Shown: positions 520 to 10,476 of the stretch, one piece after another
How the letters are laid out: each line of letters starts with the position of its first letter
Position numbering within the stretch: the stretch's first letter is position 1
Origin: Flavobacteriales bacterium
GTDB taxonomy: Bacteria > Bacteroidota > Bacteroidia > Flavobacteriales_F > PHOS-HE28
Reading direction: 5' to 3'
Length of the DNA: 64,000 bases
Assembly (NCBI GenBank): GCA_013360395.1
Contig: JABWBQ010000018.1
Coordinates: 11,428-75,427, forward strand
Made by a program: the position numbers and the translations under genes
The notes under the pieces: generated by a model
Database searches by the model: none
Told to the model about the DNA's origin: nothing
The model's input: the letters and a program-made list of their open reading frames with translations, nothing else

Positions 520-1224
520 TCAAACGGACCGCTCCAGCCGGTCCTTCCACCTTTTCCAGTCCGGCATCACCCTTTCGAGCAAGTTGTAAAAAGCCTTGCC
601 ATGGTGGTGGTGAACAAGGTGACACAGTTCATGCAGGATCACATAGCGGATGCACATCACCGGGGTCTGGACCAGGTCCGGGTTGAGCACCAGCACCCCT
701 GCCGCCGTGCAACTGCCCCAGCGCCGCAACATGGTGCGATATGCGAGCTTCGGTGTACGCACGGGATGGTGCGCCCGAAGGATCTCCAATGCGGCGAGCA
801 CCTCGGCATTGAAGCGCTTCCGCGTGTGGGCATGGTACCATGCCGCCAACTGCCGCTTCACCAGAGCGCGGTCGGTGGTATCTGGCAGGTATACGATCAA
901 CTCACCGCGCGTGAGCTTCACGCAGGGCTGGTCCGACCTGCGGATCCGCAGCACATGCCGGCGGCCGAGATAGGACCAGGTCTCGCCGGCGATGCCTTCG
1001 CGCGCCGGACGGCCGGGCAGAAAGCGCTCGAAGTAACGTTGCTGCCGTGTGATCCAGGCGCCCCGCCGAAGCACGCGTTGCCGGATCACGTCGGGAGCGA
1101 TACCGGCCGGGGCCAGCACCACCACACTGCGGTCGGGGTGTACTTCGATGCCCAGCGTCCGCCGGGTGCGAAACTGCACGCTGTACACGATCGGCGTGGT
1201 GCCGTATTGCACGGTGCCCATCAT
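520..1224 (-). CDS. DUF45/YgjP-like M48-family zinc metallopeptidase (HExxH), the usual type I R-M accessory gene
   Basis: HELCHLVHHHH motif. 4-nt overlap with hsdR stop. This family is frequently found downstream of hsdR. Confidence 0.7.
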   Translation of the reverse strand: MMGTVQYGTTPIVYSVQFRTRRTLGIEVHPDRSVVVLAPAGIAPDVIRQRVLRRGAWITRQQRYFERFLPGRPAREGIAGETWSYLGRRHVLRIRRSDQPCVKLTRGELIVYLPDTTDRALVKRQLAAWYHAHTRKRFNAEVLAALEILRAHHPVRTPKLAYRTMLRRWGSCTAAGVLVLNPDLVQTPVMCIRYVILHELCHLVHHHHGKAFYNLLERVMPDWKRWKDRLERSV

Positions 1225-4200
1225 CCGTAATTCGCGCGGGCCACCTGCATGCAGCGCAGCAGCACCGCATCCAGCCTATCATAGTCCACGGTGCCGCCGA
1301 ACAGCTCGGGGTGCTGGAGTAATAGGTCCTCCACGGCGTTCTCCATGGCGCGTTGCACGTCCAGGTTGCGGTGCCAGTCCCGGATACGCCGCTGGCGGAT
1401 CAGGTCATCCACTTCCAGCGCAATGGTCCCGAGCCTATCCGACCATGCGGCACCATCACCCACGGGATCCAGCGCATCCTTCAGCACGCCGAAGAAGGCG
1501 CGCGCCTCGGGACGGCCTTGCACCCCGGCAGGGATGCCGCGCCCTACCCCGCTCTGCATGTCGCTCTGGATGCCCAGCACGCGCTGCAGGTACTCACGCT
1601 CATCGAGGCGCCCTTGGTGGAAGGCCTGGATGGTCTCCTCCACCATTTTGCTGAACGGTTTGTAGAAGCTCTCGTCCTTCTCCAGGTTCTCGGTGATGCT
1701 CCGCTTTAGGTTGTGCGCGATGGTGTCCGCCTTGGCCGCCACGCTTTGCTTGTCTTCGCCATAGTGGGCCAGCGCCTCGGCCACCATGTTCTCATTGAAG
1801 ATGTTCACCGTGGGCGTGGTGGACCGCACTTCACCGGCCCCGATGTGGCTGTCCAGCAATTTGCGGATGCGGCCTTCGTACTCGCGGTAGTTCACGCGGT
1901 CGTCGGCGTAGCGTTGCATGGCCGCCGTGCGCAGCGATTCGAACAGCTTCAGGTCCTTGCGCCATTGGTCCACGCGGCGCTCGTCGTAGCGGGCATAGAG
2001 GCCGGCCGTTCCGAATGCCATGTGCAACAGCCGTGCGAACAGGCTTAGGCGCTCGCGGAACTGGTCGCGGCGGTCGGCCGGTGCGAGGTGGCGCTGCAGC
2101 GCCTCATTGTCGTTGCGGTCCGCGCCGTTGAACACCGCCCACACCGCAGCGTGCGCATCCGGGAGTTTGGCCAGCTCCTCGTCCACGTCGTGCACCGTGT
2201 CCAAGAGGTCCTGTTCATCGAAGCCCGCGAGCGCATCGTAGAAGGTGAGCGCCTGGTCGAGCTTGCCGAGCAATCCGACGTAGTCGATGATGTGGCCGAA
2301 CTCCTTGCCTTCGAAAAGGCGGTTCACCCGGGCGATGGCCTGCAGGAGGTCGTGCCCGTGCAGCGGCTTGGCGAGGTACAGCACCGTGTTGCGCTCGGCA
2401 TCGAAGCCCGTGAGGTATTTGCTCACCACGATCAGCAGTTCCACCTCGCGCGAGGCGCTCTTGAACTTGTCGATCACCCAGGTCTCATACGTGGTCTGGT
2501 CGCCGTAGCGGTCCACGATGCCCTGCCAGTAGGTGCGGGCGCTCTCGCTGGCCTCGCTCCAGACATCGTCGTTCTCCTCGCGGGAATCGGGGGGTGTGAA
2601 GACCACCTTGCTGTTGAGCCGTAAGGCCGGGTCGGGCTGGTCCTCGAAGAAGCGCTGGTAGCGGATGGCGGTATCGATGGTGGGCACTGCCAACTGCGCC
2701 TTCAGTCCCGTGCCCTGCCAGGTGCCGCAATAGTGCTTGCTGATGTCGTAGGCCACTTCCTTCACCACTTGCTCGGCACTGAAGAGCTTGCCGATGCCGC
2801 GCGATCGGTTCTTCAAGGCCCTCTGCACCTCCTCCGGCAGGAAGCCGAACTGGCGGAAGAAGTCGCGGTCCAGCTCCTGCAACTTGGCGTAGAGCTGCGG
2901 GCTCCGGCCCTCGTAGAGCAGCGGCACCACGGCCTTGTCCGCCACGGCCTGCCGCATGGTGTAGGGCCTGATGAAACCGCCGAACTGCTTCACCGTGTTC
3001 TTGTCCTTGCCCAGCACCGGTGTGCCCGTGAAGCCGATGTAGCAGCCGTTGGGCAGCAGCTTGTGCATGGCCTGGTAGTTCAGGCCGTATTGGCTGCGGT
3101 GGCTCTCGTCCACCAGCACGAACACGTCGGTGCTCCGCTCCTTGAAGCCCCTGCGTTGCATGGCCCCCCGGAACTTGTTCACCACGGTGGTGATCACGGG
3201 CACGCCCTTGTCCTTCAGCAAGCGGATCAGGTCGCTGCTGCTGCTGGACTTCTCCACCTTCTTGCCGCAGTTCAGGAAGGTCTTGTGGATCTGCCGGTCC
3301 AGGTCCACGCGGTCGGTCACGAGCACCACGCGCGGATCGGCGATGGCTTTGTCCAGCGCCAGCGCCTTGCTCAGCATCACCATGGTGAGGCTCTTGCCGC
3401 TGCCTTGCGTATGCCAGATCACACCGCCCCGGCGCTTGCCGTCGGCATCCAGCTGGCGCACGCGCTCCAGGGCGTCCTGCACGGCGAAGTACTGCTGGTA
3501 GCGCGCCACCTTGCGCACGCCGGCATCGAACACGGTGAAGCGGTAGGCCAGGTCCAGCAGCCGCTCGGGGCGGCACAGCGCATAGAGCGCGCGGTCCTGC
3601 TCGGTGGGAAGCCGGTCCTCGGGCGGCCGATCTTCGTGCGGCCGGGCCAGCAGGTCCGTCACGGCGCGTTCCACGTCCTCCTTCCAGCCTGACCAGTACT
3701 TGGCCGGGGTGCCGGTGCAGGCATAGCGCACCTCGTTGGGCTGCGCGGCGATGAGCAATTGCGCGTAGTGGTAGAGCCGGGGCACGCCTTCCTCCCGCCG
3801 TTGATCGCGGATGTGCTGGCTCACCGCATCGTCGGTGCTCCACTTCACATCGCGGCGCTTGCACTGGACCACACCGAAGGGGATGCCGTTCACGAAGAGC
3901 ACCAGGTCGGGCCGGCGGGTGGCGTGCACGCCCTCCACGATGTACTCGTCGGTGACGTGGTACACGTTGTTCTGCGGTTTTTCCCAATCGATGTAGCGCA
4001 GGGTGAAGGCCTTCTGGTCGCCCGCCACGTTCTCGGCAAAACTCTTGCCCAGCGTGAGCAGGTCGTACACCTTCTCGTTGGTCTGCACCAGCCCTTCATC
4101 CGGCACGCGCTGCAGGGCCATGATGGCCGCGTTGATGCTCTGCGGGCTGAAGGGATACTCCTGCCCTTTGTAGGAAAAGCGGTTGATGGCCTTGAGCCGC

Positions 4201-4349
4201 TCGCGCAGCACCTCTTCCAGCAACACCTGGCCCAGCAGGCCGTCGCGCTGGCGCACCGCCTCTTCGCGGCTGAGCCATTGGTAGCCCAGCCGGCGCAGGA
4301 AGCGCAGCGCGGGCAGGTGGCTATCGGGGTATTCGGCGAAAGAGGGCAT
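1221..4349 (-). CDS. hsdR: Type I restriction enzyme R subunit (HsdR), 1042 aa
   Basis: DEAD-like helicase motifs (GSGKS Walker A, DESH) and a C-terminal HsdR domain. In operon context with hsdM/hsdS. Confidence 0.9.
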   Translation of the reverse strand: MPSFAEYPDSHLPALRFLRRLGYQWLSREEAVRQRDGLLGQVLLEEVLRERLKAINRFSYKGQEYPFSPQSINAAIMALQRVPDEGLVQTNEKVYDLLTLGKSFAENVAGDQKAFTLRYIDWEKPQNNVYHVTDEYIVEGVHATRRPDLVLFVNGIPFGVVQCKRRDVKWSTDDAVSQHIRDQRREEGVPRLYHYAQLLIAAQPNEVRYACTGTPAKYWSGWKEDVERAVTDLLARPHEDRPPEDRLPTEQDRALYALCRPERLLDLAYRFTVFDAGVRKVARYQQYFAVQDALERVRQLDADGKRRGGVIWHTQGSGKSLTMVMLSKALALDKAIADPRVVLVTDRVDLDRQIHKTFLNCGKKVEKSSSSSDLIRLLKDKGVPVITTVVNKFRGAMQRRGFKERSTDVFVLVDESHRSQYGLNYQAMHKLLPNGCYIGFTGTPVLGKDKNTVKQFGGFIRPYTMRQAVADKAVVPLLYEGRSPQLYAKLQELDRDFFRQFGFLPEEVQRALKNRSRGIGKLFSAEQVVKEVAYDISKHYCGTWQGTGLKAQLAVPTIDTAIRYQRFFEDQPDPALRLNSKVVFTPPDSREENDDVWSEASESARTYWQGIVDRYGDQTTYETWVIDKFKSASREVELLIVVSKYLTGFDAERNTVLYLAKPLHGHDLLQAIARVNRLFEGKEFGHIIDYVGLLGKLDQALTFYDALAGFDEQDLLDTVHDVDEELAKLPDAHAAVWAVFNGADRNDNEALQRHLAPADRRDQFRERLSLFARLLHMAFGTAGLYARYDERRVDQWRKDLKLFESLRTAAMQRYADDRVNYREYEGRIRKLLDSHIGAGEVRSTTPTVNIFNENMVAEALAHYGEDKQSVAAKADTIAHNLKRSITENLEKDESFYKPFSKMVEETIQAFHQGRLDEREYLQRVLGIQSDMQSGVGRGIPAGVQGRPEARAFFGVLKDALDPVGDGAAWSDRLGTIALEVDDLIRQRRIRDWHRNLDVQRAMENAVEDLLLQHPELFGGTVDYDRLDAVLLRCMQVARANYG

Positions 4350-4505
4350 GAGGCTTTACAGTGAACAGGCGGTTGTTACAAGAAACCATTTTCCACGATC
4401 GATCGTTGATAACCTTGTGTATATTTGCACCAGCTCATCTCACCATTCGGGAGAAGGAGTTCGGGGGACGGTAGGCCAAGATGCCTATCTGTCCCCCGCG
4501 TCATT

Positions 4506-5036
4506 TTAGCGCACATCGGGCAGCTTGCGTTTGGCGGCCTTCTTCATCATCTTTCGGTAGCTGTGGTCCCGGTCCAAGTGGTAGGCCGTGATCAGGTAGT
4601 ATGCACCGGGCTTCCGGTTCGGCTCCAGTACCACCACATAGCGTTCATCATGGTTCAAGATGTAGGTGCGCACTTTCCATGCGTCATCCACACGATCCTC
4701 TGCGCTGAAGACCTCCACCCGCGCACTAGTCCCTTCCTGTATGTGGGGCAATACCCAATGCAGTCTTCGGCTCCGTTCAAGTTCGAAGATCCTGGACTTT
4801 CGTTTGGTGCCATCGATGACCTCCAGCACCTCCACAGTGGTCAGATGCCTGAAGAGCAGCTGCATCGCCGGCTCCTCACCCTTTATTGGATAGATCGGGC
4901 GCTTGCGGAATGCGAACGCTGGGTTGTTCTCTATATCGCGTTGAAAGACCCCCCTTAGCGATGCCGTCCTTGACGCTTCGCTCATACCGCCGATGTCCAA
5001 CAGTTCAGGGTAGCGCTTGATCAGGTTCAACGGCAT
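4506..5036 (-). CDS. Hypothetical 176-aa protein, no family recognised; translationally coupled partner of DUF3800 gene
   Basis: TAATG stop/start overlap with the upstream DUF3800 ORF. Low GC relative to the flanking hsd genes. No motif recognised by eye. Confidence 0.6.
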   Translation of the reverse strand: MPLNLIKRYPELLDIGGMSEASRTASLRGVFQRDIENNPAFAFRKRPIYPIKGEEPAMQLLFRHLTTVEVLEVIDGTKRKSRIFELERSRRLHWVLPHIQEGTSARVEVFSAEDRVDDAWKVRTYILNHDERYVVVLEPNRKPGAYYLITAYHLDRDHSYRKMMKKAAKRKLPDVR

Positions 5037-5722
5037 TATTTCAGGTCGATGATGAAGATGTTGAACTTGTCCTTGTCCTTGGGGGTGGAGTGCACCAAAC
5101 TGGTTCCCGCATGGGTCTGTATCCGTTCGATCAATCGGGTCTTGGCGATCATCTTCTTCTCCGGTTCGTTCAGGTTGTACGCCAGTGCACCCATGATGAA
5201 GTCGGTAAGCTGCAGGAACACACTCTCGCTTGACCGGATGTTCTGCAGGTTGCGGATGCTGTTGTACCGGACATTCAGGATGTCTTTCAAGGTTTTCACC
5301 TTCCTTGCACTCAGGGTATCCTTCACATCCAGGTAGATATTGTATGTATTGAGCATGTCGATCTTATGGTGCAGCAGTTGGTAGTACATCTTGTAGTAGA
5401 ACGTATCATGGTCCTGCCCGAATGATGCGTTCCTGATGCGCGCCTTAGGTACCACCAAAGCACGGAACAAGAGCTCAGTGCCGAAGAATAGTTCCACCAA
5501 GTCGGCATAAAAGCTGTACTTGGACCTGGACACCTTACTCCACTTGATCTCCCCATAAAAATTATGCCGCTGCTTCAGTTGCTTGATCTGCTCGGTATAG
5601 AGACGTACCAGCGGATAAGCAACACTGATGTAGGCGATGAGCATGAAGTCCTTGCCATCATTCTCCAAATGGCTGCTCTCGTCGCAATACAGGTTGTAGG
5701 TCTTTCCTCCGTTCATTTCCAC
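5036..5722 (-). CDS. DUF3800 family protein (228 aa)
   Basis: Both DUF3800 signature motifs are present: N-terminal Y-x-DES (YNLYCDESS) and C-terminal Q-L-x-D (LQLTDFIMGA). AT-rich codon usage unlike neighbouring genes. Confidence 0.75.
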   Translation of the reverse strand: MEMNGGKTYNLYCDESSHLENDGKDFMLIAYISVAYPLVRLYTEQIKQLKQRHNFYGEIKWSKVSRSKYSFYADLVELFFGTELLFRALVVPKARIRNASFGQDHDTFYYKMYYQLLHHKIDMLNTYNIYLDVKDTLSARKVKTLKDILNVRYNSIRNLQNIRSSESVFLQLTDFIMGALAYNLNEPEKKMIAKTRLIERIQTHAGTSLVHSTPKDKDKFNIFIIDLK

Positions 5723-5727
5723 ATCGG

Positions 5728-7014
5728 TTAGTGGTTCATCAATCCGCCCGACAACAGCAACTGCATCAAGCCCCGCTTCTGCTCATGGAGTTCTTTCAGC
5801 TTCATGCGCAGTAGGTCGAGCTCATCATCGAATGAGGCTGTGGCGTTGGCAATATGATCCTGGGTCTCATTCGGCGGTAGCGGTACCTCCATTTCCGCGA
5901 GCTGTGAAGGATAGATGTGCACCACGCTGTGACCCTGCCCGAACTTCAGGCGTTGGCGATCTGTAATGGTACTGTTGAGCGCAGTGGCCAGATACAACGC
6001 GTTGATCCCATTCGGGCGAAGAATGATCACATCTCCTCCAGCGCATGCGCGTTCTTTGTCGAGATACACGGCCGCCTTCCCGATCTCCTCGGCCGTCTCA
6101 CCCGAACCAGCGAAGAGCACATCGTTGCGTTGGATGGGCTGACTTCCGTCGGCCACAGCTTCGGCCACGAAAGAGTGGAAGCGCTTGACCCGGACATGGT
6201 GAACGGTATAGAGCTCGCCATAGGTCACCACTGGTACGCCCTCGGGATGTATTTCGCTTTTCAGGATCCCCTTGCCTTTCGCGAAAGTCCCCAGCTCCCC
6301 CAACCGCACCCACCTCCACCCCTTGGGCAGTTGGCCGTTGGAGGCGCCGTGGCGTGCGCCGCTCACCAGCTGATCGATCAGCCCGCGCAGGCGCTCTTCC
6401 TTGGCGGCGATCTGCTGGCCCAGCAGGCCTATGGCCCGGTCCCAGGTGCCCAGGATACGCGCGATCCTCCGCTGCTCGGGGAGGGGGGGGAGGGGGATAT
6501 GGGATCGGAAGAGTTCAGTCCTGCTCAATGTCTTGTTCCTGCCTGCACCACCGGGTGAAGCATCATCAAGTATGACACGGCCACGATCGGTCTTGAAGAA
6601 GTACAGCACGAAATCAAGGTCCACCAGATCCTCTTTCGGCTTGAACATCGGAAACCGGTGGGAAGCGATAAGGCCTACCTCAGATCCGGTAGTCCGAGCT
6701 ATTCCTTGCTCCCAGGCGAACACGATGTTGGCGACCAAGCAATCCGGCTGTACCCAGAAGACGGACTTGTCACCGAGTTTGGCACCTGTTACGGGTTCCT
6801 TGTAGAACAACCCCTTGCCGTGCGATCGGATACCGATCTCTACGTAGTTCTGAGCGTCTTCGACATCAACTGCGACCTTTACTTCCTGGAATGCATCCCC
6901 GAAACGCATGGTCTTCCAATGCGCCGGGAGATGCCCGAGCTTGGGATGATACATCGGCTTGCCTTGCGCAGAACGAGAGTCCTGTTCGGCCTTGGCCCCC
7001 TTCCTCCCACTCAT
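5728..7014 (-). CDS. hsdS: Type I R-M specificity subunit (HsdS), two target-recognition domains
   Basis: Central and C-terminal conserved HsdS repeats (LPPLPEQRRIA...; VPLPPNETQDHIA...). True start may be the internal Met at 6954 (MYHPKLGHLPAHW...). Confidence 0.85.
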   Translation of the reverse strand: MSGRKGAKAEQDSRSAQGKPMYHPKLGHLPAHWKTMRFGDAFQEVKVAVDVEDAQNYVEIGIRSHGKGLFYKEPVTGAKLGDKSVFWVQPDCLVANIVFAWEQGIARTTGSEVGLIASHRFPMFKPKEDLVDLDFVLYFFKTDRGRVILDDASPGGAGRNKTLSRTELFRSHIPLPPLPEQRRIARILGTWDRAIGLLGQQIAAKEERLRGLIDQLVSGARHGASNGQLPKGWRWVRLGELGTFAKGKGILKSEIHPEGVPVVTYGELYTVHHVRVKRFHSFVAEAVADGSQPIQRNDVLFAGSGETAEEIGKAAVYLDKERACAGGDVIILRPNGINALYLATALNSTITDRQRLKFGQGHSVVHIYPSQLAEMEVPLPPNETQDHIANATASFDDELDLLRMKLKELHEQKRGLMQLLLSGGLMNH

Positions 7015-7096
7015 GGTTCCAGGTGGTTATTGTGGATGAACATGGAGCGCCGTGCGGCGGGCGTGTTCATCTCCACGAATCGTGACCAGGTGAGTT

Positions 7097-7951
7097 TCAT
7101 GACTTCTTCCTGGGCTTGAGCTTCTTGGTGGTCTTGAGCACCTGCTTCCGTTCGGAGGCCAGCCGGCGCTTCACCTTCTCCAAGTCCTCAGCTGCTGGCA
7201 GCTCTTCCGGTTTCACCCCGCGCTTCAGGAGCATGCTGCGCACTTCCCAGTTATTGTCGATATGCTCCCGTGTGATAGCCCGGTCGCCCTTCAGGTCCTT
7301 CTCGTTCACGTTGTGGCTGGTGAGCTCTGCGGCGAAGTCCTTGGCCTTGATGGTGAGCGTAGGCAGGAAGTCGGCCAGCGGACGGCTGCCCGGCACGCCC
7401 AGCTTCTTCTTCATGGCCTGGGTGCCGTGGCCGCCGAACAAGGCGCGGTCCCCCTCGTGGCGGATGTTGGCGAAACTGCGCTCGTCCACCCCGCGCTCGT
7501 AGATGATGCCGCTGAGCTTGCGCTCGGTCTCCTTCAGCTTCTCGCGTGCCGCCACCCGGTCGCTCTCCAGGAGCCGCTGCTCCACCAGCTCCTGCCGGCG
7601 GGTCTGGATGGCGAAGTAGGTTTGGGCAAAAGCGATCTCGGGTTTGGCCGGGTCGCCGTTCTGCGCGATGAGGTAGCAGGCATAGCGGGTGAGGGCGAAA
7701 TCGTCGATCGGACGCTGGGCACCGCTACCCAGGTCGACCATTTTGTTGACGCCAACAAAATGGTCCGCTGCCGGCTCACCTGAGTTGGCGCATGCATCTC
7801 GTGCTTTCTCCAAGGCATTCAAGAAGTTACGCCAGTCCGTGTAGCCGAAAATGGCCTGCAGGTCGCGCGCGCTCCAGCATTCAATGCCTTCCATGGTGCC
7901 GCTGGCCGCCTCGAAGCGCTGCCAGAGTTCGTTGATGAGTTCCTTCTTCAT
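7097..7951 (-). CDS. dinD: DNA-damage-inducible protein D / RhuM-family protein
   Basis: Strong similarity to E. coli DinD (…ECWSARDL…RYACYLIAQNGDPAKP…AQTYFAIQTR). Start placed at Met 212 of the track ORF (MKKELINEL); the first 211 residues are a GC-rich shadow overlapping hsdM. Confidence 0.8.
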   Translation of the reverse strand: MKKELINELWQRFEAASGTMEGIECWSARDLQAIFGYTDWRNFLNALEKARDACANSGEPAADHFVGVNKMVDLGSGAQRPIDDFALTRYACYLIAQNGDPAKPEIAFAQTYFAIQTRRQELVEQRLLESDRVAAREKLKETERKLSGIIYERGVDERSFANIRHEGDRALFGGHGTQAMKKKLGVPGSRPLADFLPTLTIKAKDFAAELTSHNVNEKDLKGDRAITREHIDNNWEVRSMLLKRGVKPEELPAAEDLEKVKRRLASERKQVLKTTKKLKPRKKS

Positions 7952-7962
7952 GTGCCTCGTGT

Positions 7963-9516
7963 TCAGTTCAATCCGAGTTCCTTCAGGTAGCCGGCCATCT
8001 CGCCCTTCACCTTCACGAGTTCCTTCTCCAGTTCGTCGATGCGTTGCTGCACGGCCTTCAGGTCCACGGGGGGCTCCTCCTGGAAGGTGTCCACGTAGCG
8101 CGTGATGTTGAGGTTGAAGTCGTTCTCGCGGATCTGCGCCAGCGTGGCTCGGGTGGCGTACTTCTCCTCGCTCCTGAAGGCCTGGAAGGTGCGCACGATC
8201 CGGGCGATGTCCTGCTCGCGCAGGTGGTTCTGCCGCTTCTCCTGCTGGTACTCGCGGCTGGCTTCGATGAAGAGCACATCGGTGGTGGTCTTCGCCTTGT
8301 TGAAGAGCAGGATGGCAGCCGGGATGGTGGTGCCGTAGAAGAGGTTGCCGGGCAGGCCGATCACGGCATCCAGCAGGTTCTCCTCGATGAGCTTGCGGCG
8401 GATGAGCTGCTCGCGGCCGCCGCGGAAGAGCACGCCGTGCGGCACGATCACGCCCACCTTGCCCGTGCCTTCGGCGGCGGTGTCCACCATGTGCAGGATG
8501 AAGGCGAAGTCGCCCTTGCTCTTGGGGGGCACGCCGCGCGTGAAGCGCTTGTACGTGTCGGCGGCGGCGGCGGCCTCGCCCCATTTGTCCAAGCTGAAGG
8601 GGGGGTTGGCCACCACGACGTCGAAGGTCATCAGGTGATCACCTTCGATCAGGCGCGGGTTGTTGATGGTGTCGCCCCATTCCACGCGCGCACTGTCCAT
8701 GCCGTGCAGGAACATGTTCAGCTTGCACAAGGCCCAGGTGTCGCCGTTGCTGTCCTGGCCGTAGAGGGAGAAGTCGGGGCTGGGCAGGCCCTTGGCGTCC
8801 TTCACTTCCTCGGCCACGGTGATCAGCAGGCTGCCGCTGCCGCAGGTGGGATCGCAGATGCGGGCCCCGGCCCTGGGGGCGAGCAGTTTCGCCAGCAGCA
8901 CGCTCACCTCGTGCGGCGTGAAGAATTCCCCGCCCTTCTTGCCCGCGTCCGACGCGAAGCGCTCGATGAGGTACATGTAGGCGTTGCCGATGAAGTCCCA
9001 CTTGGTGCCGAGCACGCTGGGGCGGAAGTCGAGGATGGGGTCGGAGAAATCGCCGATGAGGTTCTCCAGGCGGCGGTTGCGGTCCTTGGTCTGGCCGAGC
9101 TTCTCGCTGTTGAAGCTGATGCCGCGGAACACGTTCTCCAGCTTGGCCTGGTTCTCGTCCTCAATGTGGGTGAGCGCCTTGTCGATGAGCTCACCGATGT
9201 TGTCGGCGCGACGGTGCTGGAAGAGGTATTCGTAGGTGCACTCCGGTGGCAGCACGAAGCGCTCGCGCTTCAGCTTGCGGGCCACCAGTTCGGGATCCGG
9301 GTATTGCTGCTCCAGCTTTTCCTTGGTGTCCCGCCACACGTCGCTGAGGTACTTCAGGAACATGAAGGTGAGCACGTAGTTCTTGTACTCGCTGGGGTCG
9401 AACGCACCGCGGAAGCTGTCGCAGGCCTTCCAGAGCGTTTCGTTGATCAGGCGCTGCAGCTCCTTCGGGTCGGAAGGACGCTCGCTCGCGGGCGCGGTTT
9501 TGGTCTTGGTCTCCAT
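7963..9516 (-). CDS. hsdM: Type I R-M DNA methyltransferase subunit (HsdM)
   Basis: N6-adenine MTase motifs (VANPPF, DPTCGSGSLL) with HsdM N-terminal domain. Start at METKTKT (9516) instead of the extended track start. Confidence 0.9.
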   Translation of the reverse strand: METKTKTAPASERPSDPKELQRLINETLWKACDSFRGAFDPSEYKNYVLTFMFLKYLSDVWRDTKEKLEQQYPDPELVARKLKRERFVLPPECTYEYLFQHRRADNIGELIDKALTHIEDENQAKLENVFRGISFNSEKLGQTKDRNRRLENLIGDFSDPILDFRPSVLGTKWDFIGNAYMYLIERFASDAGKKGGEFFTPHEVSVLLAKLLAPRAGARICDPTCGSGSLLITVAEEVKDAKGLPSPDFSLYGQDSNGDTWALCKLNMFLHGMDSARVEWGDTINNPRLIEGDHLMTFDVVVANPPFSLDKWGEAAAAADTYKRFTRGVPPKSKGDFAFILHMVDTAAEGTGKVGVIVPHGVLFRGGREQLIRRKLIEENLLDAVIGLPGNLFYGTTIPAAILLFNKAKTTTDVLFIEASREYQQEKRQNHLREQDIARIVRTFQAFRSEEKYATRATLAQIRENDFNLNITRYVDTFQEEPPVDLKAVQQRIDELEKELVKVKGEMAGYLKELGLN

Positions 9517-9545: not shown

Positions 9546-9866
9546 TCAGCGAAGTTGGGTGTTCAGCGGCGGCTGGTATTGGCGGATGAGTTCCCGCTCG
9601 ATGGTATCTCGGTCCGTCTGTGCACGAACCACGCGTGCATGCACATGCGTGGCGCCAAGACGCTGCGCGGGCTGCCATTGCTCGTGGGTGGCTGGGCGAT
9701 CAGCGAAGCTTGCCGACTGTCCGATGTAGAGGGCGCGCCACATGCCGTTGATCACGCCGCAGAAGATGTAGATGCCGGGGACGTCGTTCCAGGTCGCATG
9801 CTTGTCGCACACCTCGAAGGCGTATCCGCCCCAGGTGATGTGTTTCGCGGTCGTGTGGTGGTTCAT
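9546..9866 (-). CDS. Small GIY-YIG nuclease-domain protein
   Basis: GIY...YIG motif (PGIYIF...ALYIGQS) plus conserved R/E downstream. Sits between the half-hsdS and hsdM. Confidence 0.5.
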   Translation of the reverse strand: MNHHTTAKHITWGGYAFEVCDKHATWNDVPGIYIFCGVINGMWRALYIGQSASFADRPATHEQWQPAQRLGATHVHARVVRAQTDRDTIERELIRQYQPPLNTQLR

Positions 9867-9870
9867 GTTT

Positions 9871-10476
9871 TCAGGCGGTTGCGTTGGCGAGTGTCTGCTC
9901 CACCAGCACCCGGCGCTGATGCAGCAGTTCGTTGGTAAGGATCTCTTCCTGCACGGCCAACTGGTGTACCCGGGCGATGAGGCGCTGGCGCTCCAGCGGA
10001 GGCAGCGGAACGCCCAGTTCCTTCAGGACCGTCAACGGGATGTTCGGCACCGTGGTGCCCACCATGCTCGCCTTGAAGTGTGCCTGGGTGGCCGTGGAGT
10101 TCAGGAACCATAGCAGGTAGCCGGGGTCGAGCACATCGGCCTTCGTCCGGATCACCACGAAGAGCGAGCCGGCAATGACGCGTTCGGACAGGTCGAAGCG
10201 ATAGGCCTGCGAGCGGCCGCCCTTGCCCGCGAAGAGGATATCGTCCGGCTGCAAGTGCTCTCCTGCCCAAGCTTCCACCGCGTCGCATTGGCCCAGCACG
10301 CCATCGGCCGCGGCTTCCTTCCGGCCCAGCAGCCGCTGACCCTTCAGGTCCTTATAGCTGAGCACCCGGATTGCGTCCGGGGCCGAACTTTGGGGAGCTG
10401 CCCGAAAGGTCCGGCCTGTCCGTATGAAGGCGGACAGGTCATCAAGGCGTTCAATCGAAATGCTCATATGGATCAT
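9871..10476 (-). CDS. Half-size HsdS: one target-recognition domain plus the conserved C-terminal repeat
   Basis: C-terminal LPPLERQRLIARVHQL matches the HsdS conserved region. 201 aa is about half of a normal HsdS. First gene of the hsd operon. Confidence 0.65.
   Translation of the reverse strand: MIHMSISIERLDDLSAFIRTGRTFRAAPQSSAPDAIRVLSYKDLKGQRLLGRKEAAADGVLGQCDAVEAWAGEHLQPDDILFAGKGGRSQAYRFDLSERVIAGSLFVVIRTKADVLDPGYLLWFLNSTATQAHFKASMVGTTVPNIPLTVLKELGVPLPPLERQRLIARVHQLAVQEEILTNELLHQRRVLVEQTLANATA

Follow-up and report, generated by a model that had tools for sequence, protein, structure and literature searches.

A DUF3800 gene pair between hsdS and hsdR of a Flavobacteriales type I restriction-modification operon, its phage P1 orthologues and a structured RNA element at its 3' end

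What are two AT-rich genes doing between the specificity and restriction genes of a type I restriction-modification (R-M) operon? The question is raised by a 64,000-nt stretch of DNA from a Flavobacteriales bacterium (GenBank assembly GCA_013360395.1, contig JABWBQ010000018.1, positions 11,428 to 75,427), here called the window, to which all positions refer unless another locus or accession is named. Its segment 4350-5727 encodes a DUF3800 protein and a 176-aa partner inside an hsd operon. A first interpretation made without database searches (the sequence-only reading) gave the operon order as hsdM-dinD-hsdS-DUF3800-176-aa gene-hsdR and proposed an undescribed defence module coupled to the R-M system. 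The gene order was confirmed, with all genes co-oriented on the minus strand. The protein pair itself proved to be a catalogued defence candidate homologous to rlfA-rlfB of phage P1, and it is followed by a covarying, structured RNA element that occupies a fixed position in every member examined and is recorded neither in the catalogue entry nor in the P1 annotation. The interpretation put forward here, to which a probability of about 50% is given, is that of an autonomous, horizontally acquired three-part nuclease module residing in a cargo hot-spot.

The DUF3800 gene lies on the minus strand at 5036-5722 when read from a GTG or at 5036-5716 when read from an ATG (226-228 aa), and the partner gene lies at 4506-5036 on the same strand, its start overlapping the DUF3800 stop in a TAATG at 5034-5038 that had already been noted from the sequence. 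Against PADLOC-DB v2, residues 4-227 of the DUF3800 protein matched positions 2-228 of 232 of PDC-M04A (PDLC04353) with an E-value of 4.2e-82, and residues 1-175 of the 176-aa protein matched positions 1-166 of 167 of PDC-M04B (PDLC04358) with an E-value of 7.3e-62. Eleven more M04B models also matched the 176-aa protein, while no PADLOC model outside PDC-M04 matched either protein at E<=0.01. The layout is that of PDC-M04 as well, A followed by B, adjacent and co-oriented. Phage defence candidates (PDC) were collected from BREX, DISARM and type I R-M loci on the principle of "guilt-by-embedding" (Payne et al. 2024, bioRxiv 10.1101/2024.01.29.577857), and Table S8 of the same work lists CAS_00034 (FAM_00014>>FAM_00043) with a count of 679 in RefSeq and the entry "Assign as candidate PDC-M04". 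The pair is an already catalogued candidate and the locus one more embedded example. It shares with PDC-M04 the two full-length model matches, the order and orientation of the two genes and the type I R-M embedding that lies behind the candidate's definition, and differs in that the definition covers two proteins only, the conserved RNA element being no part of it. The description of the module as undescribed therefore has to be withdrawn, as does the statement that the 176-aa partner matches nothing, since it is also matched by PHROG 16230 and by RlfB of phage P1. In the literature, PDC-M04 was not found mentioned by name, and the studies testing PDCs chose others.

The DUF3800 protein matched Pfam PF12686 with 44 bits at a cut-off of 21. 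The DES and QLxD motifs named by the sequence-only reading are present as CDESxH at residues 11-16 and QLTD at residues 169-172, and both are invariant in the family, as are D12, E13, D130/D133, E164, Q169 and D172. In the predicted structure the protein adopts an RNase H2-like fold, and it is taken to be a predicted RNase H2-like nuclease. Its sequence identity to type 2 RNase H enzymes (RNase HII/H2A and RNase HIII) is 9-16%, and the likeness here rests on the predicted fold. DUF3800 proteins are also known from type VII retrons and, as TPR-DUF3800 proteins, in linkage with Cas12a2/Cas12a3, whereas the present one has no reverse transcriptase, TPR or Cas partner. The AlphaFold2 model of the 176-aa partner (pLDDT, the predicted local distance difference test, of 83) is mixed alpha/beta. 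The partner had no match in Pfam or NCBIfam, and its model gave weak fold matches only, none of them significant in Foldseek; RNase toxins of the RelE/ParE/BrnT/colicin D type (BECR) were considered as possible relatives. A sequence search for relatives with solved structures found none for either protein. An HEPN-like Rx4H motif in the partner (R88-x4-H93) was rejected, as H93 is an Arg in P1 RlfB and the model is mixed alpha/beta rather than all-helical. An apparent DUF3800-partner fusion (P0290) was likewise discarded as evidence of interaction, being a garbled, frameshifted read.

The link to phage P1 was first suggested by the database name "RlfA" of one DUF3800 homologue. In a tblastn search of phage genomes, the DUF3800 protein was 43% identical over 98% of its length to P1 RlfA (RapA in P7; E 4e-47). 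The partner matched P1 RlfB by BLASTP with 32% identity over 101 residues (E 9e-9), and its family profile aligned to RlfB with an hhalign probability of 95.7% over 146 columns. The pair is held by PHROGs families 3732 and 16230, of which the latter matched the partner with an E-value of 3e-6 and is labelled "replication protein" after RlfB. As in the window, rlfA precedes rlfB in P1 with a one-base stop/start overlap (L001 4193, L001 being the P1 locus), and the RNA element follows the rlfB stop codon (NC_005856 52905-53001). The P1 genes ("replication-linked functions") differ in lying beside the lytic replicon, behind an annotated C1 operator and outside any R-M context, and P1 RlfB is shorter, with 154 aa compared with 176 aa here. 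A solo DUF3800 gene of distant relationship (27% identity) was also observed in Mannheimia phage PHL101 (L107 2498-3307), where the CI repressor gene of this P2-like prophage lies a few genes upstream; neither an RlfB-like partner nor the RNA element was found with it.

The third part of the module is a structured non-coding element at 4407-4506, on the minus strand as matched by the covariance model, which starts at the stop codon of the partner gene. In the window, hairpin 1 pairs positions 4497-4483 with 4476-4463 and is followed by the linker GAACTCCTT (4462-4454), by hairpin 2 (4454-4449 paired with 4444-4438), by ATGAGC (4438-4433) and by GCAAATATA (4428-4420; TATATTTGC on the plus strand). 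Scanning one genome per species yielded 80 loci encoding a partner homologue, and the element was seen after the partner stop codon in essentially all of them. On the gene strand, the 5' part of the family consensus consists of TAA and an A-run, CGCA and a hairpin of ~13 bp with the loop (A/T)TCnnG, and the 3' part of the linker CGAAACTCCTT, a hairpin of 5-6 bp with a one-base bulge, ATGAGC and GCAAAnnTA. Between the window and its closest relatives, L092 and L095, the spacer is ~95% identical over ~125 nt and the partner proteins are 78-81% identical, and conservation in this alignment is higher in the element than in the coding sequence beside it. The conservation extends to about 4385, into the remainder of the spacer (4350-4406, minus strand) that leads up to the hsdR ATG. 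As its first part is shared with L092 and L095, this remainder could contain promoter elements for a small RNA or for hsdR.

Covariation was evaluated on two alignments. In the MAFFT alignment, 95.6% of the cells were paired, compared with 78.8% in shuffled alignments and 33-42% with the partner columns slid; across both alignments the corresponding values were 95.6-96.1%, 77-79% and 33-45%. Cells changed on both sides of a pair numbered 306 in the MAFFT alignment against 93.5 +/- 9.7 in shuffled alignments, a value that none of 500 shuffles reached, and 306-362 against 94-104 across the alignments. Compensatory changes were found in 14-16 of the 20 pairs (14 on the MAFFT alignment), and hairpin 1 was recovered independently by RNAalifold. 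A covariance model built from the element alignment (R1) found exactly one match per locus in 88 of 88 loci (1.28 Mb), each at the partner stop codon, and its sole match in the 64-kb window was the element at 4407-4506 (75 bits, E 7e-18). Phage P1 directly after rlfB (44.8 bits, E 5e-9), a Rhizobium plasmid (37.6 bits, E 1e-8) and a contig of a faecal phage (68 bits) had not been used in training, and each was matched; P1 and the plasmid are among the 88 loci. Ten hsd loci without the pair gave no match, and the result for a Bifidobacterium phage was not significant. With such a covarying two-hairpin element at a fixed position in every member examined, the two-protein candidate becomes a three-part module.

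Several identities of the element were examined and rejected. Rfam 15, which includes at least DUF3800-I and DUF3800-IX, was searched with window positions 3500-7500 at E<=1, with 20 loci at the gathering score and with 12 loci at E<=5. No Rfam model matched the element, including those two, the sole weak match being an unrelated RAGATH-7 elsewhere (12 loci, E<=5). A small open reading frame (ORF) starting from the conserved ATGAGC was dismissed, since L092 reads ATGAGCTGA there and would stop at once, and conservation is lacking further downstream; the alignment of the loci held no conserved ORF in the element. An integron attC-like or general cassette recombination site was excluded too, because sister hsd loci that hold different cargo lack the element and there is no integrase. 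Eleven unrelated structured RNA motifs that adjoin DUF3800 genes, DUF3800-I to -XI, have been described with no hypothesis offered for them (Weinberg et al. 2017, PMC5737381). The present element resembles these in being a structured, covarying motif tightly linked to a DUF3800 gene, and some of them likewise have a terminator at the end and occur on one strand or the other, whereas this one is tied to RlfA and RlfB pairs and always starts at the partner stop codon. It is set apart from them by the Rfam 15 models only, and a motif absent from Rfam could be identical to it.

Which strand carries the RNA is answered with a preference rather than a settled choice: in the window, the element is probably transcribed from the plus strand, as a convergent antisense small RNA of ~70-85 nt. 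In P1, the strand opposite rlfB holds TTGAAA-17-TAGATT, followed by a 14-bp hairpin and then by the U-tract AGCTTTTTAT. In the Bacteroidota, the opposite strand carries TAnnTTTG at a fixed place in 64 of 82 loci, with a peak of TTTG 19-20 nt upstream, an arrangement which we take to be the Bacteroidota sigma-A promoter consensus. In the antisense reading, a terminator's U-tract would correspond to the conserved A-run that follows the stop codon. Three observations keep this orientation at the level of a preference. In the sense reading, 73 G-U pairs (51 of them at one pair) stand against 43 A-C pairs, an ambiguous count that was dropped as a means of assigning the strand; the Rhizobium locus has a terminator-like hairpin on the sense strand after the element; and in the window, 6 nt lie between stem and U-tract, and a good -33 element is not seen. 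The promoter match TTGAAA-17-TAGATT and the 14-bp terminator hairpin of P1 belong to a candidate small RNA gene that is missing from the annotation, situated between rlfB and pmgF on the opposite strand to rlfB (L001 4654-4760, equal to NC_005856 52905-53011).

How the cassette came to lie in the operon is indicated by the closest hsd locus, L084, identified in a metagenome scan with HsdR and encoding an HsdR 91% identical to that of the window. DNA homology between the two is lost from the hsdS stop codon to the hsdR ATG, so that 4350-5727 is exactly the segment in which they differ and the exchanged unit comprises all of it, including the 156-nt spacer. In the window, hsdS (5728-7014, minus) and hsdR (1221-4349, minus) form the upstream and downstream boundaries of the insert, respectively. 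L084 carries a RhuM-like gene in the dinD slot and a 451-aa ORF in the cassette slot (L084 3703-4752 and 6448-7803), and as its breakpoints lie exactly at gene ends, cargo has been exchanged at both the hsdM-hsdS and the hsdS-hsdR junction. More distant hsd loci have no cargo, their hsdS and hsdR genes abutting or overlapping. Homologous loci lacking the cassette, about which the sequence-only reading had asked, thus exist. The hsdS-hsdR gap is read as a hot-spot for exchangeable cargo and the cassette as a discrete, horizontally acquired unit. Such precise exchange at gene boundaries in a scaffold of 91% identity also helps to read other embedded genes.

The base composition, which had been called AT-rich from the outset, agrees with that description. 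With a GC content of 0.519, the 1378-nt segment 4350-5727 is the minimum over all windows of the same size in the 64 kb (mean 0.652, sd 0.035). By feature, GC was 0.491 for the DUF3800 gene, 0.559 for the partner gene and 0.500 for the spacer, compared with 0.649 for hsdR and 0.639 for hsdM. The GC content of hsdS is also reduced, at 0.583 overall and 0.54-0.56 in the parts nearest its two ends, and the compositional dip consequently reaches beyond the cassette. A search for repeats, direct or inverted, at the flanks of the cassette or in common with a half-size hsdS gene further upstream gave only short, chance-like matches, and the idea was rejected. The gap between the hsdS stop and the DUF3800 start is 5-11 nt, and the cassette is probably co-transcribed with hsdM-dinD-hsdS.

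The pair is not peculiar to this locus. A DUF3800 gene lies directly upstream of the partner gene in all 79 loci with upstream DNA, mostly with a gap of 1-8 nt, which settles in the affirmative whether the two recur together elsewhere. Genomic context was counted in the 42 loci whose flanks reach 4 kb or more on each side: in 25 of these the pair lies between hsdM/hsdS and hsdR, in 3 hsd genes are nearby, and in 14 no hsd gene was detectable within the flanks examined. In 30 of 58 loci hsdR follows directly downstream of the pair. Embedded loci always show the order pair to hsdR, usually followed by YgjP, with a spacer to hsdR of 57-1416 nt, and their HsdR proteins are 19-98% identical to each other. 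The cassette family is strongly associated with the hsdS-hsdR position, across divergent type I systems. A rough tree built for the pair mixes embedded with solo copies and requires a minimum of 15 changes of state, compared with a mean of 20 for shuffled labels. Solo copies occur among housekeeping genes (adh_short and patatin; NrdD and NrdG) or beside a TIR gene, and the solo module was also found in phage P1 and on the Rhizobium plasmid. The closest relatives of the window cassette are themselves embedded in hsd operons with RhuM, Metallophos and TIR, KilA-N or Bro-N cargo. Of these, L092 carries an embedded RhuM, a Metallophos phosphoesterase and a TIR protein (3285-6031), and L095 carries Bro-N, Metallophos, KilA-N and a 217-aa protein directly upstream of the DUF3800 gene (2897-7324).

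From these parts the following mode of action may be proposed. The RlfA-type DUF3800 protein, with its conserved acidic residues, would be the nuclease effector, and the translationally coupled RlfB-type partner a regulator, a sensor or a second nuclease. The structured element of ~75-100 nt right after the partner stop would give rise to a convergent small RNA whose terminator abuts the stop codon. The operon or the proteins it encodes could be restrained by this small RNA, whether it pairs in antisense with the mRNA's 3' end or binds the proteins, and phage infection would lift the restraint. The module would thus act autonomously, as a toxin-antitoxin-like or abortive-infection nuclease, and the R-M complex would not be needed for its activity; dependence on that complex is unlikely because of the 14 of 42 loci without hsd and the solo copies in P1 and on the Rhizobium plasmid. 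Similarities with type I/III toxin-antitoxin loci having RNA antitoxins (TxpA/RatA, ToxIN) include a small operon, a cis-encoded structured RNA at its 3' end, possibly convergent, and presence in phages, plasmids and defence loci. No homology links them to the present module, which has two proteins, neither of them a ToxN-like RNase or a small membrane peptide.

A wider claim is held more tentatively, namely that RlfA, RlfB and the RNA might constitute a previously unrecognised RNA-containing immune or addiction system, distributed from Bacteroidota to coliphage P1 and rhizobial plasmids, in which the RNA is an obligatory third component (antitoxin, sensor or guide). If true, it would provide the first functional handle on why many unrelated structured RNAs accompany DUF3800 genes, a question open since 2017, as the module connects to that unexplained association (PMC5737381). 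The RNA element and the P1 orthology are what is added here to a previously catalogued protein pair, and the orthologue in P1 and E. coli makes the family experimentally approachable.

Some points tell against an autonomous defence nuclease. The annotation of P1 rlfA and rlfB says "possibly associated with lytic replication" only, and an annotated C1 operator precedes the genes. The operon would then be under repression in lysogens and active during lytic growth, a pattern unexpected for a prophage defence gene; the pair is also non-essential in P1. The literature yielded no experiment showing PDC-M04 or P1 rlfAB to be phage-protective or toxic. The role of the RlfB-type partner within the module, taken to be that of regulator, sensor or second nuclease, is assumed. 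Finally, the embedding rate of 60% just upstream of hsdR could reflect a functional tie to type I R-M.

The first two groups of facts, the absence from the literature found of any experiment on the family and the repressor-controlled annotation of the P1 copy, make a role outside defence a serious rival, although we regard it as rather unlikely. The cassette would then be a selfish addiction (toxin-antitoxin) cassette or a phage or plasmid accessory, for instance one processing RNA-DNA hybrids in replication, and would accumulate in R-M loci because these tolerate insertions. The position beside repL/oriL in P1 and the P1 name "replication-linked function" speak for such a role, as do the carriage of the pair by phages (PHROG 3732 and 16230), the RNase H2-like fold and the solo copies outside defence islands; the small size and cis-encoded RNA recall type I/III toxin-antitoxin loci. 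However, P1 rlfA and rlfB scored as non-essential in a CRISPR interference (CRISPRi) screen, so that the pair is dispensable for P1 lytic growth, and most copies are chromosomal with no phage genes nearby. The pair is moreover strongly enriched in defence operons that hold other defence-type cargo, including TIR and RhuM/PDC-S05, of which PDC-S05 has been reported as protective.

A coupling of the pair to the R-M system, as the sequence-only reading had suggested by analogy with PrrC, is considered improbable, although it retains some likelihood for the embedded copies. It supposes that the HsdMSR complex holds the pair latent and that a phage anti-restriction protein disabling R-M frees it, resulting in back-up abortive infection. 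The analogy stands as far as position is concerned: as in PrrC/EcoprrI, where the accessory gene encodes an anticodon nuclease, accessory genes lie co-oriented inside a type I hsd locus, here between hsdS and hsdR. The 25 of 42 embedded loci, the 30 of 58 with hsdR directly downstream, the recurrence of embedding in type I systems with HsdR proteins as little as 19% identical, and the probable co-transcription with hsdS across a gap of a few nucleotides would all be expected of a guardian. The analogy fails for the proteins: PrrC is among the systems that PADLOC detects (Payne et al. 2024, bioRxiv 10.1101/2024.01.29.577857), and neither protein matched a model other than PDC-M04 there, nor does the partner belong to a Pfam family. 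No sequence or domain relation to PrrC was detected, and two proteins and an RNA element are present here as opposed to one protein. A PrrC-type nuclease would be expected almost solely within type I R-M loci, whereas a third of the present family has no hsd nearby; the copies among housekeeping genes, in P1 and on the Rhizobium plasmid argue likewise against dependence on the R-M complex. In sister loci, unrelated cargo fills the same gap, as would be expected of a general landing site more than of a specific partnership.

That the element is not itself a functional RNA partner but only a bidirectional terminator with a promoter, or a palindrome in the DNA to which a protein binds and which shields the cassette from its neighbours, is very unlikely: hairpin 1 with its upstream A-run does resemble a terminator, the element is always at the 3' end of the operon and the wobble pairs leave its strand ambiguous, but, unlike ordinary terminators, it is conserved from Bacteroidota to Gamma- and Alphaproteobacteria, its unpaired parts (the CGAAACTCCTT linker, the TC..G loop and ATGAGC) are nearly invariant, it has a second covarying hairpin and exceeds the coding sequence in conservation, and DUF3800 genes associate with 11 other structured RNA motifs (PMC5737381).

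The remaining genes of the operon were assigned as follows. HsdR is supported by Pfam HSDR_N, SWI2_SNF2 and T1RH-like_C and by PADLOC REase_I (E 9e-170), HsdS by Pfam Methylase_S and PADLOC Specificity_I, and hsdM, at about 7963-9510 on the minus strand, by Pfam and PADLOC. Between hsdM and hsdS, a DinD-like Bro-N protein is encoded at 7097-7903 (minus), matching the NCBIfam DinD equivalog with an E-value of 9e-105 and PADLOC PDC-S13 with 3e-112. It represents a second embedded cargo that is itself a PADLOC candidate. Upstream of hsdM, a half-size HsdS of 201 aa with one target-recognition domain is encoded at 9871-10476 (minus), which has no long repeats in common with the full hsdS, and a 106-aa ORF at 9546-9866 (minus) with weak similarity to the N-terminus of UvrC/Cho adjoins it. 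At the other end of the operon, a YgjP-like metallopeptidase gene (520-1224, minus) overlaps the hsdR stop codon; such a gene follows hsdR in most of the related type I loci examined, with or without cargo.

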